Assembly (NCBI GenBank): GCA_042570305.1
Contig: JBHPGP010000004.1
Span: 2,230 to 66,229 of the forward strand
Direction of reading: 5' to 3'
DNA: 64,000 nt
DNA from: Candidatus Omnitrophota bacterium
GTDB taxonomy: Bacteria; Omnitrophota; Gorgyraeia; Gygaellales; JAHJCI01
The number at the start of each line of letters is the position of its first letter. Positions within the stretch are counted from its first letter, which is position 1. The notes beneath the pieces are model-generated. The model was not told where the DNA came from, searched no databases, and saw only the letters and a list, made by a program, of their open reading frames with translations. The translations under genes were made by a program, and so were the position numbers. Shown here in pieces: positions 56,605 to 56,769 of the stretch.

Positions 56605-56769
56605 CTATGACTTAACGGGACTGCAACCAGCCAAAGCCGTGCCAACATATATTGCTGCGAGATAATTTGTTGCCTCCGGAGTATCCAGTAACGTTTCTTT
56701 CAATTCCGGAGCTTTGTATGTTTTCTTTCTTGCTTTCTGTTTATTTTTGTGTTTCTTCGCGACACCCAT
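56605..56769 (-). CDS. candidate RiPP precursor peptide, 54 aa: MGVAKKHKNKQKARKKTYKAPELKETLLDTPEATNYLAAIYVGTALAGCSPVKS
   Basis: Below the ORF-track size cutoff; hand-translated codon by codon. GGAGG lies 6 nt upstream of the ATG at 56769, with TAG at 56607..56605. Same strand, 24 nt after the PqqD-like gene and 28 nt before the kinase-like gene. Contains Y18-K-A-P21-E-L23 (YxxPxL). Confidence 0.6.
   Translation of the reverse strand: MGVAKKHKNKQKARKKTYKAPELKETLLDTPEATNYLAAIYVGTALAGCSPVKS

Follow-up and report, generated by a model that had tools for sequence, protein, structure and literature searches.

A narrowly distributed Omnitrophota peptide family as the probable precursor of a radical S-adenosylmethionine-modified product

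We analyzed a 64,000-nt stretch of a Candidatus Omnitrophota genome (contig JBHPGP010000004.1 of assembly GCA_042570305.1; the whole stretch is referred to as the window), which carries a 54-residue open reading frame (ORF) followed by a stop codon on the minus strand at positions 56605 to 56769. The encoded peptide (MGVAKKHKNKQKARKKTYKAPELKETLLDTPEATNYLAAIYVGTALAGCSPVKS) is, with high confidence, the precursor of a ribosomally synthesized and posttranslationally modified peptide (RiPP) that is acted on by radical S-adenosylmethionine (rSAM) enzymes. We consider it probable that its C-terminal codons, which a preliminary description of the same DNA had singled out, form the core of an uncharacterized precursor family that is modified along the pathway proposed below. 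Representatives of the family are so far known only from Candidatus Omnitrophota. The best reading of the peptide system is a rSAM-tailored RiPP pathway that depends on a RiPP recognition element (RRE) and is distinct from those of lasso peptides, classical sactipeptides, and proteusins, with a predicted phosphorylation of the C-terminal Ser.

The precursor gene lies 24 nt 3' of a PqqD-family gene and 28 nt 5' of the next gene, and a ribosome-binding site precedes its start codon (Table 1). Most related loci that were read carry GGAGG or GGAGGT at the corresponding site (i.e., L005, L008, L011, L012, L014, and L016; related loci are numbered with the prefix L), and L001 has GAGGT. The precursor is present in a single copy within the window; a second copy was ruled out, as tblastn found none. 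No Pfam or NCBIfam model matches the peptide or its 35-residue Lys-rich leader. A word-indexed search of 5.8 billion proteins yielded 6 homologs; with a broader alignment, a profile search brought the total to 24 distinct sequences. When 1.84 billion cluster representatives were scanned exhaustively with HMMER, only two precursor clusters at 50% identity emerged, which indicates that the family is real but very narrow. All homolog sources with an organism name are metagenome-assembled genomes (MAGs) of Candidatus Omnitrophota/Omnitrophica.

The conservation of the peptide is far beyond chance. Among nine DNA sequences of the window's subfamily (subfamily 1), nucleotide identity over the core is only 72 to 93%, and 22 of the last 27 codon positions vary synonymously only, with 4 changing the amino acid. 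Mean protein identity within the subfamily is 92% over the last 27 residues versus 54% over the N-terminal part, and the neighboring enzymes of those loci are only 35 to 69% identical. The synonymous-only variation points to strong purifying selection on the peptide and, together with the ribosome-binding site and the homologs, marks the gene as real and translated.

The C-terminal end of the peptide (YLAAIYVGTALAGCSPVKS) holds 4 Ala, 2 Leu, 2 Val, 1 Ile, 2 Gly, 2 Tyr, 1 Thr, 2 Ser, 1 Pro, and 1 Lys residue and a single Cys residue, exactly the composition reported in the preliminary description. The span given there (56605 to 56666) starts correctly and ends 2 nt too far, in the codon for Asn35; the 19 core codons and the stop codon occupy 56605 to 56664. 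No acidic residue follows E32. Within the leader, neither Y18 nor P21 varies in the two subfamilies of the precursor, and position 23 is L, M, or I. In lasso peptide leaders, a YxxPxL sequence at positions -17 to -12 is the RRE-binding motif (PMC10368454). In both subfamilies, the leader Tyr is followed 16 residues later by the Thr of a conserved PE[AD]T motif, versus a canonical spacing of 15 in lasso precursors; this Thr sets the putative leader/core junction at residues 34 to 36, in agreement with the 19-residue core described earlier.

The genes next to the precursor suggest how such a leader and tail might be used. In every locus, the PqqD gene lies directly upstream of the peptide gene, and the top NCBIfam match of the PqqD protein of the window is lasso_PqqD_Bac, below its cutoff. 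The HprK-like kinase encoded downstream contains the residues H188, G203xSGxGKST (G203-H-S-G-D-G-K-S-T), and D225-D226, which are invariant or nearly so among 23 homologs. They reproduce in full the H/GxxGxGKS/DD motif of BsfK and other lasso precursor kinases (H148-G163-G166-G168-K169-S170-D186-D187); the PqqD-type B1 protein speeds up the reaction of these kinases (PMC10368454). An AlphaFold2 model of the kinase (predicted local distance difference test [pLDDT] score, 83) resembles ATP-dependent phosphoenolpyruvate carboxykinases and HPr kinase/phosphatases, which belong to a common P-loop kinase superfamily. Sequence searches of the PDB with the kinase and with the neighboring NTP_transf_5 nucleotidyltransferase gave no meaningful match, and a single-sequence AlphaFold2 model of the latter was unusable (pLDDT, 35). 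A PF14907 gene of this type occurs near ScmC-like kinase genes in the window and in seven loci (L001, L017, L019, L023, L024, L027, and L029). PadeK and PsmK phosphorylate, and sometimes polyphosphorylate, the C-terminal Ser of lasso precursors, and the nucleotidyltransferase PsmN adds a hexose to the phosphate on that Ser (PMC6993621).

Small ORFs beside more distant ScmC-family genes (L019/L020, L023, L024, L025, and L026) represent five other peptide types. These have a basic N terminus and a Y-x-x-P-x-[LIV] motif, their Cys-containing cores are unrelated, and each of the five types ends in GS. The seven peptide types (i.e., the two subfamilies and these five) have only the leader motif and the terminal Ser in common. 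The ORFs at L019:9723-9896, L023:5732-5911, L024:5812-6000, L025:5792-5983, and L026:4983-5168 form a separate, undescribed family that adjoins genes for PqqD, one rSAM enzyme, and a ScmC-type kinase and has a DEAVLGxCK-type core with Cys, always ending in GS.

The precursor gene belongs to a run of 18 same-strand genes (58173 down to 39522) that are separated by 0 to 93 nt or overlap slightly and are headed by a promoter-like site at 58279 to 58252. In order, they encode the membrane-anchored TPR protein, PqqD, the peptide, the HprK-like kinase, B12-rSAM 1, twitch1, the rSAM/SPASM enzyme, the S26/GNAT fusion, B12-rSAM 2, twitch2, B12-rSAM 3, two further rSAM enzymes, a GNAT protein with a dead peptidase-like domain, B12-rSAM 4, and a two-gene ABC-2 exporter. 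Nine rSAM enzymes are thus encoded in the operon, all with a CX3CX2C motif. The four cobalamin-type enzymes noted in the preliminary description are present as stated (Table 1); all contain a PF02310 domain, which is above the gathering score in three of them and below it in B12-rSAM 3 (25.7 versus 32.1 bits). The same description counted three SPASM/twitch enzymes, of which one has a Pfam SPASM match; twitch1 and twitch2 have C-terminal Cys residues and no SPASM match, so that "twitch-like" is a plausible label for them. B12-rSAM 1/twitch1 and B12-rSAM 2/twitch2 constitute a duplicated two-gene module, each member of which is 47% identical to its paralog. The nearest curated families of the B12-rSAM enzymes are peptide C-methylases (ApyD and rSAM_ocin_1) at subthreshold scores (e.g., B12-rSAM 1 matches ApyD best among NCBIfam models with 265 bits versus a cutoff of 750), the small rSAM enzymes match only generic rSAM families, and the rSAM/SPASM enzyme is below every curated sactipeptide or ranthipeptide cutoff. 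Function assignment of single rSAM enzymes through NCBIfam or the PDB was therefore rejected, as all matches were below curated cutoffs or lay in the generic rSAM core. A scan of the window with Rfam gave only three tRNAs; neither a cobalamin riboswitch nor any other RNA element was found in the vicinity of the operon.

Synteny holds across at least 10 independent loci of both subfamilies. Subfamily 1 comprises L001 to L016, L021, and L022, with the gene order TPR-PqqD-peptide-(kinase)-B12-rSAM 1-(twitch1)-SPASM-S26/GNAT-twitch2-GNAT-B12-rSAM 4-ABC; an ortholog of B12-rSAM 1 is present in every subfamily 1 locus that extends past the kinase position. The complete cluster of L021 encodes five rSAM enzymes, two of them B12 type, versus nine in the window. 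L006, L008, and L009 (i.e., Omnitrophota MAG JAQTRM010000056 and relatives) keep a GCTPAKS tail, have neither kinase nor twitch1 at the canonical position, and show a 260-nt noncoding gap 3' of the peptide gene. A GMC-family oxidoreductase gene and an extra rSAM gene lie upstream of PqqD at L001:8287-9567 and also in L002 to L004 (the variant with a 48-residue peptide); they are absent from the window. Subfamily 2 was found in L017, L027, and L029 (example peptide, MPKNIRHKKLYKKPEMNKVQLNSPEDTAAVVAAAVVIGVVGALVVSTPAKS), with the order PMT_2-NTP_transf_5-PqqD-peptide-kinase-S26/GNAT-B12-rSAM (751 residues)-B12-rSAM (590 to 598 residues)-small rSAM-TPR-ABC and with neither a SPASM enzyme nor a second GNAT gene. 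Its second B12-rSAM enzyme (590 residues in L017) is 50% identical to B12-rSAM 2, and the only small rSAM enzyme of L017 is 47% identical to twitch2. Of the rSAM pairs, only a single module of one B12-rSAM and one small rSAM enzyme is conserved across the two subfamilies.

The peptides of the two subfamilies share the invariant residues Y18, P21, L28, P31, E32, V42, A45, L46, P51, and S54, with T34 and K53 nearly invariant. The position equivalent to Cys49 is T, V, or S in six of the seven subfamily 2 peptides and Cys in one, and six of the seven cores have no aromatic residue. The SPASM gene, in turn, occurs in every subfamily 1 locus long enough to include its position and is lacking in the complete subfamily 2 loci L017 and L029. 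These distributions bear on the chemistry predicted in the preliminary description. Its view that a classical multithioether sactipeptide is unlikely holds, given the single Cys and its absence from six of seven subfamily 2 peptides. The multiple C-methylations that it foresaw gain from the presence of a B12-rSAM/small-rSAM pair beside an aliphatic core in both subfamilies, which would fit C-methylation of aliphatic residues or another kind of radical reaction on them. The same core occurs with two to four B12 enzymes, depending on the locus, so four enzymes do not imply four kinds of methylation. The single Cys cross-link suggested there is favored by the restriction of the SPASM enzyme to the Cys-containing subfamily, a co-occurrence that would fit one Cys-directed SPASM step, and is weakened by the replacement of Cys in most of subfamily 2. 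Because both Cys and aromatic residues are missing from most subfamily 2 peptides, Cys or Tyr cross-links cannot be the family-defining chemistry, and the aromatic cross-link that had been proposed fails in this role. The preliminary description made no mention of the YxxPxL leader, the HprK-like kinase, the nucleotidyltransferase, the invariant C-terminal Ser, the S26/GNAT fusion, or PMT_2.

The S26/GNAT fusion scores above its curated cutoff. Its GxSMxP Ser and HR[VI] His are kept in the orthologs of both subfamilies, and it has no hydrophobic segment, the absence of a membrane anchor being atypical for S26 enzymes. Together with the fused GNAT domain, these features suggest that it could plausibly act as a leader peptidase in the cytoplasm, with capping of the N terminus coupled to cleavage. 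The second GNAT protein (42562 to 43578) aligns with the S26-GNAT proteins as a paralog that has lost both the catalytic Ser and the catalytic His, and it may be a substrate-binding pseudopeptidase. The ABC-2 exporter genes mark the operon end in the window, L005/L021, L017, and L029.

From these data, we propose the following pathway. The PqqD protein would bind the invariant YxxPxL motif of the leader and present the peptide to the enzymes. The ScmC-family kinase would phosphorylate Ser54, in analogy to the action of PadeK and PsmK on lasso precursors, a step that we regard as probable, and the PsmN-like nucleotidyltransferase and/or PMT_2 may extend the phosphate or a nearby Ser/Thr with a sugar. 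The cobalamin rSAM enzymes would C-methylate unactivated sp3 carbons within the aliphatic stretch; the odds favor at least one C-methylation on the peptide. The paired small rSAM enzymes may perform a second hydrogen abstraction reaction, either epimerization or cross-linking; epimerization of the core appears unlikely. In the Cys-containing subfamily only, the SPASM enzyme would act on or through Cys49, a link that we put forward tentatively as somewhat less probable than its absence. The soluble S26 domain would cut off the leader near the PE[AD]T junction, the fused GNAT domain would cap the new N terminus, and the ABC-2 transporter would export the hydrophobic product.

A number of observations weigh against this pathway or parts of it. 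No rSAM enzyme of the operon reaches a curated NCBIfam threshold, so that methylation, epimerization, and cross-linking are all inferences, as is all other chemistry of the pathway. Class B rSAM enzymes also catalyze reactions other than methylation, and the number of B12-rSAM enzymes ranges from two (L021) to four (the window) for an essentially identical core. The correlation between the SPASM enzyme and Cys rests on only two complete subfamily 2 loci. With regard to the tail, BsfK phosphorylates Ser3 rather than a C-terminal Ser (PMC10368454), and thus site specificity is not fixed in this kinase family. The kinase is missing at its canonical position in L006, L008, and L009 although the peptide ends in KS, and no NTP_transf_5 gene lies within the 21 kb fetched for L021. 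Finally, the cleavage site of the S26 domain is not predictable, the conserved Thr is one residue off the canonical -2 spacing of lasso precursors, and the lasso protease that would read it is absent.

The family was compared with several known systems. Phosphorylated lasso systems (paeninodin PadeA/K, pseudomycoidin PsmA/K/N, and BsfA/K/N) resemble it in the YxxPxL leader, the discrete PqqD-type RRE, the HprK-like kinase motif, the nucleotidyltransferase of the uncharacterized NTP-transferase type, the precursor ending in Ser, and the ABC exporter. However, a scan of the ORFs of the cluster and of further ORFs of the window revealed neither a B2 transglutaminase-like protease nor an Asn synthetase-like cyclase, and the precursor has no Asp or Glu at core positions 7 to 9, whereas the Omnitrophota clusters carry three to nine rSAM enzymes and the S26/GNAT fusion. 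Membership in the lasso peptides was therefore rejected for want of the B2 protease, the cyclase, and the acidic ring residue.

Proteusins, such as the polytheonamides (PoyB/C and PoyD), likewise combine several cobalamin rSAM and small rSAM enzymes with a core rich in Ala, Val, Ile, and Gly. The PoyA core is long; the core in the window is short (about 19 to 23 residues), and its leader has no nitrile hydratase-like (NHLP) or Nif11 match. With the PoyB/C-type model rSAM_ocin_1 (TIGR03975), the B12 enzymes of the window score 122 to 125 bits versus a cutoff of 281.85. The SynChlorMet (SCM) and other Haft-type cassettes share with the operon a gene trio (a ScmC-type HprK-like protein, a PqqD-like protein, and rSAM/SPASM enzymes) and Pfam family PF27840, but its proteins stay far below all SCM cutoffs (ScmC, 33 versus 125 bits; ScmD, 25 versus 100; and ScmE, 78 to 102 versus 400); we know of no described chemistry for the SCM cassette itself. 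The aminopyruvatide enzyme ApyD, a Tyr C-beta methyltransferase that acts near the peptide C terminus, is the top curated match for B12-rSAM 1, 2, and 3 (126 to 307 bits versus a cutoff of 750). It differs in that the 50% identical ortholog of B12-rSAM 2 belongs to subfamily 2, in which most cores have no aromatic residue. Epipeptides (YydF/YydG) and bottromycins are short hydrophobic peptides in which rSAM enzymes act on Val/Ile-type residues, with ABC export, but no specific similarity was found, and YydG- and Bot-type models were not among the top matches. Literature searches for the HprK-like kinase/PqqD/rSAM and peptidase/GNAT/rSAM architectures and for SynChlorMet found nothing specific, the one paper to come up for HPr kinases, RiPPs, and rSAM enzymes together being a 2014 genome-mining survey; PF14907 led only to an unrelated article on phosphonates, and papers on Omnitrophota biosynthetic gene clusters (BGCs) made no specific mention of the peptide system.

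Among the other explanations, the one that survives best, although we judge it improbable, is that the rSAM enzymes modify a nonpeptide substrate (i.e., membrane lipids or an envelope glycan), that only PqqD, the kinase, and the nucleotidyltransferase act on the peptide, and that the envelope genes (PMT_2, Wzy_C, alkaline phosphatase family, and GT2/GT4) are the true context. The B12-rSAM enzymes match HpnJ, HpnR, and "lipid biosynthesis B12-binding/radical SAM" families at comparable subthreshold scores, there are weak matches between the SPASM and twitch enzymes and the lipid synthase GDGT-MAS (7tol), the envelope genes are syntenic in several loci, and ladderane-like BGC calls have been reported for Omnitrophota (PMC9902471). 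Nevertheless, the peptide, PqqD, and rSAM genes form one tight same-strand array in every locus of both subfamilies, a PqqD RRE beside rSAM/SPASM genes is a hallmark of peptide modification, and a peptidase/GNAT fusion lies amid the rSAM genes. The best explanation for the extreme conservation of the 19 to 27 C-terminal residues is that they are read by many enzymes.

That conservation, with a core far more conserved than the enzymes, would also suit a precursor of the PqqA/MftA type, from which a small redox-active, cofactor-like molecule is cut out of a few residues (e.g., Tyr and Cys), and both the PqqD chaperone and the GMC oxidoreductase of L001 to L004 would have a place in such a pathway. 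We nonetheless consider this very unlikely, as subfamily 2 keeps the operon while six of its seven peptides have no Cys and six of seven have no aromatic residue, the conserved block spans 27 residues rather than a di- or tripeptide, the operon ends with a dedicated ABC-2 exporter, and neither the window nor L021 has the GMC gene.

Equally doubtful is a classical sactipeptide or ranthipeptide in which a Cys thioether made by the SPASM enzyme is the defining modification and the other enzymes are accessory. The peptide has a single Cys, both Cys and the SPASM enzyme are absent from complete subfamily 2 operons, and the universal rSAM component is the B12-rSAM/small-rSAM pair rather than the SPASM enzyme. 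These facts outweigh the invariance of Cys49 in subfamily 1 and the presence of one rSAM/SPASM enzyme with subthreshold matches to PapB, StsB, and ACGX-type maturases.

The C-terminal half could, with very little probability, be a lipoprotein signal peptide with an L-A-G-C lipobox, from which Lgt and LspA would free a lipidated CSPVKS hexapeptide. AIYVGTALAGC fits a PROSITE PS51257-type pattern, with an uncharged stretch before the lipobox, and resembles LLAGCSS, the end of the Escherichia coli Lpp signal; the C-terminal half has a basic N-region and a hydrophobic stretch, and LpxB in the window indicates a diderm host. Against this, the Cys, at residue 49 or, in the short forms, 43, lies further in than the 35-residue rule allows, and shuffling yields a lipobox pattern in 6% of cases for the last 19 residues and in 2.7% for the last 27. 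Six of the seven subfamily 2 peptides have no Cys, an invariant hydrophobic region is atypical of signal peptides, and nine cytoplasmic rSAM enzymes would be left with no substrate.

A formylglycine-type link (C/S-x-P-x-R) between the C-[ST]-P-x-K tail and the two nearby "sulfatases" as clients of an anSME was rejected, given Thr and Ile at their key positions and an E value of about 5e-4 for the SPASM enzyme against anSME; formylglycine formation on the peptide itself, with Cys, Ser, and Thr interchanging at the position of Cys49, is a remote idea.

The features considered here are listed in Table 1. When aligned to the sulfatase 5g2v, the "sulfatases" show Thr where the formylglycine residue would stand and Ile in place of the Arg of C/S-x-P-x-R; carrying Thr rather than Cys or Ser as nucleophile, they need no anSME and are more likely phosphotransferases or phosphodiesterases. 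A "sulfatase" homolog is syntenic in L001. Homologs of the Wzy_C protein, whose family includes O-antigen ligases and O-oligosaccharyltransferases, adjoin the cluster in L005 and L021; as Wzy_C and PMT_2 bracket the operon and recur in other loci, periplasmic glycosylation of the exported Ser/Thr-Pro-x-Lys-Ser tail is possible. The guanine-plus-cytosine content is 35 to 41% in the block from about 38 to 64 kb, versus 45 to 50% in positions 1 to 38000, where housekeeping genes are located (ilv/leu genes, rpsB, and lpxB). This drop at about 38 kb, where the peptide/rSAM/envelope block starts, suggests a compositionally distinct, possibly acquired island.

Table 1. Features of the window, with positions counted from its first nucleotide
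Feature	Position	Strand	Remarks
Precursor peptide gene	56605..56769	-	ORF with 24 distinct homologs and synonymous-only codon variation
GGAGG ribosome-binding site	56776..56780	-	6 nt 5' of ATG
Leader motif Y18-K-A-P21-E-L23 (YxxPxL)	56701..56718	-	Predicted PqqD/RRE binding site
Putative core YLAAIYVGTALAGCSPVKS	56608..56664	-	Residues 36 to 54; near-invariant block; predicted boundary at residues 34 to 36
Cys49, sole Cys	56623..56625	-	Invariant in 17/17 subfamily 1 peptides
C-terminal Ser54, predicted phosphorylation site	56608..56610	-	Invariant in 24/24 family members
PqqD-family peptide chaperone (RRE)	56794..57084	-	PF05402, E value 8e-9, above cutoff
ScmC-family HprK-like P-loop kinase	55566..56576	-	Weak ScmC/HprK_rel matches; PF27840 "ScmC" precomputed for the window's own protein
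Membrane-anchored TPR protein	57163..58173	-	First operon gene; TPR Pfam matches; one N-terminal hydrophobic segment; in all loci
B12-binding radical SAM 1	53826..55472	-	PF02310 and PF04055; CPHKCTFC
Small rSAM "twitch1" (337 residues)	52816..53829	-	PF04055; CX3CX2C and C-terminal Cys252/270/301/304
rSAM/SPASM enzyme	51614..52795	-	PF04055 and PF13186
Soluble S26 (archaeal/ER-type) signal peptidase domain fused to GNAT	50612..51610	-	TIGR02228, 57.5 versus 51.85 bits; Peptidase_S24 and Acetyltransf_1
B12-binding radical SAM 2	48803..50566	-	Paralog of B12-rSAM 1, 47% identical
Small rSAM "twitch2" (325 residues)	47816..48793	-	47% identical to twitch1
B12-binding radical SAM 3	46447..47814	-	Extra in the window; no ortholog in L005/L021
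Divergent rSAM (422 residues)	45119..46387	-	Weak PF04055 match, CPNKCRFC; no NCBIfam match
rSAM (488 residues)	43621..45087	-	Distant homologs upstream in L001 and L006
GNAT with degenerate S26-like N-terminal domain	42562..43578	-	Acetyltransf_1; only in subfamily 1 loci
B12-binding radical SAM 4	41046..42569	-	66% identical ortholog in L005
ABC-2 type exporter	39522..41134	-	ATPase, 40313-41134; permease, 39522-40331
NTP_transf_5 nucleotidyltransferase (PsmN/BsfN-like)	58323..59471	+	PF14907, E value 2e-51; divergently transcribed; DxD (DID) present
Two membrane-anchored alkaline phosphatase superfamily "sulfatases"	59537..62282	-	PF00884; genes 59537-60886 and 60906-62282; cluster link uncertain
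PMT_2 (GT-C) membrane glycosyltransferase	62301..63782	-	PF13231; adjoins the cluster in L001, L017, L021, L027, and L029
Wzy_C (O-antigen ligase-like) membrane protein	38302..39516	+	PF04932; island edge; cluster link uncertain

Elsewhere in the window, genes for S-adenosylhomocysteine hydrolase and SAM synthetase lie side by side on the minus strand (10886 to 13303), about 26 kb from the operon, and probably have housekeeping functions. The three tRNA genes are consecutive (18725 to 19027, minus strand). Genes for an A24 prepilin peptidase (1158 to 1976) and a CsgG-like secretion channel (35838 to 36572), both on the minus strand, belong to the housekeeping part and are unrelated to the peptide.

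With regard to the product, one speculative and on balance improbable outcome of the proposed pathway would be a membrane-active hydrophobic peptide of the polytheonamide/gramicidin kind, which is C-methylated, possibly epimerized, N-acyl capped, and provided with a phosphoglycosyl group on the C-terminal Ser. In this case, the pathway would be a hybrid one that borrows the leader/RRE/kinase/nucleotidyltransferase module of lasso systems without making a lasso, and the near-invariant core across Omnitrophota would imply a conserved cellular role rather than that of an arms race antibiotic. Possible roles would be that of a pore former or, given the PMT_2 and Wzy_C neighbors, that of a peptide membrane anchor for envelope glycans. 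Omnitrophota are ultrasmall, host-dependent bacteria.

If the RiPP reading set out above is true, the system would be, as far as we found in the literature, the first case in which the leader/RRE/kinase module of lasso peptides is used by a RiPP that is not a lasso, and phosphorylation of a C-terminal Ser by ScmC-type kinases would be a general tailoring step in several undescribed peptide families. Up to nine rSAM enzymes would act on about 19 residues, which is among the densest enzyme-to-residue ratios of RiPP operons. As a substrate, the precursor is unusually clean and could help to assign functions to orphan B12-rSAM and twitch-type rSAM families and to a soluble signal peptidase/GNAT fusion. 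To our knowledge, essentially no natural products have been characterized from the phylum Omnitrophota, and the almost frozen core sequence suggests that the product of this operon is physiologically important.

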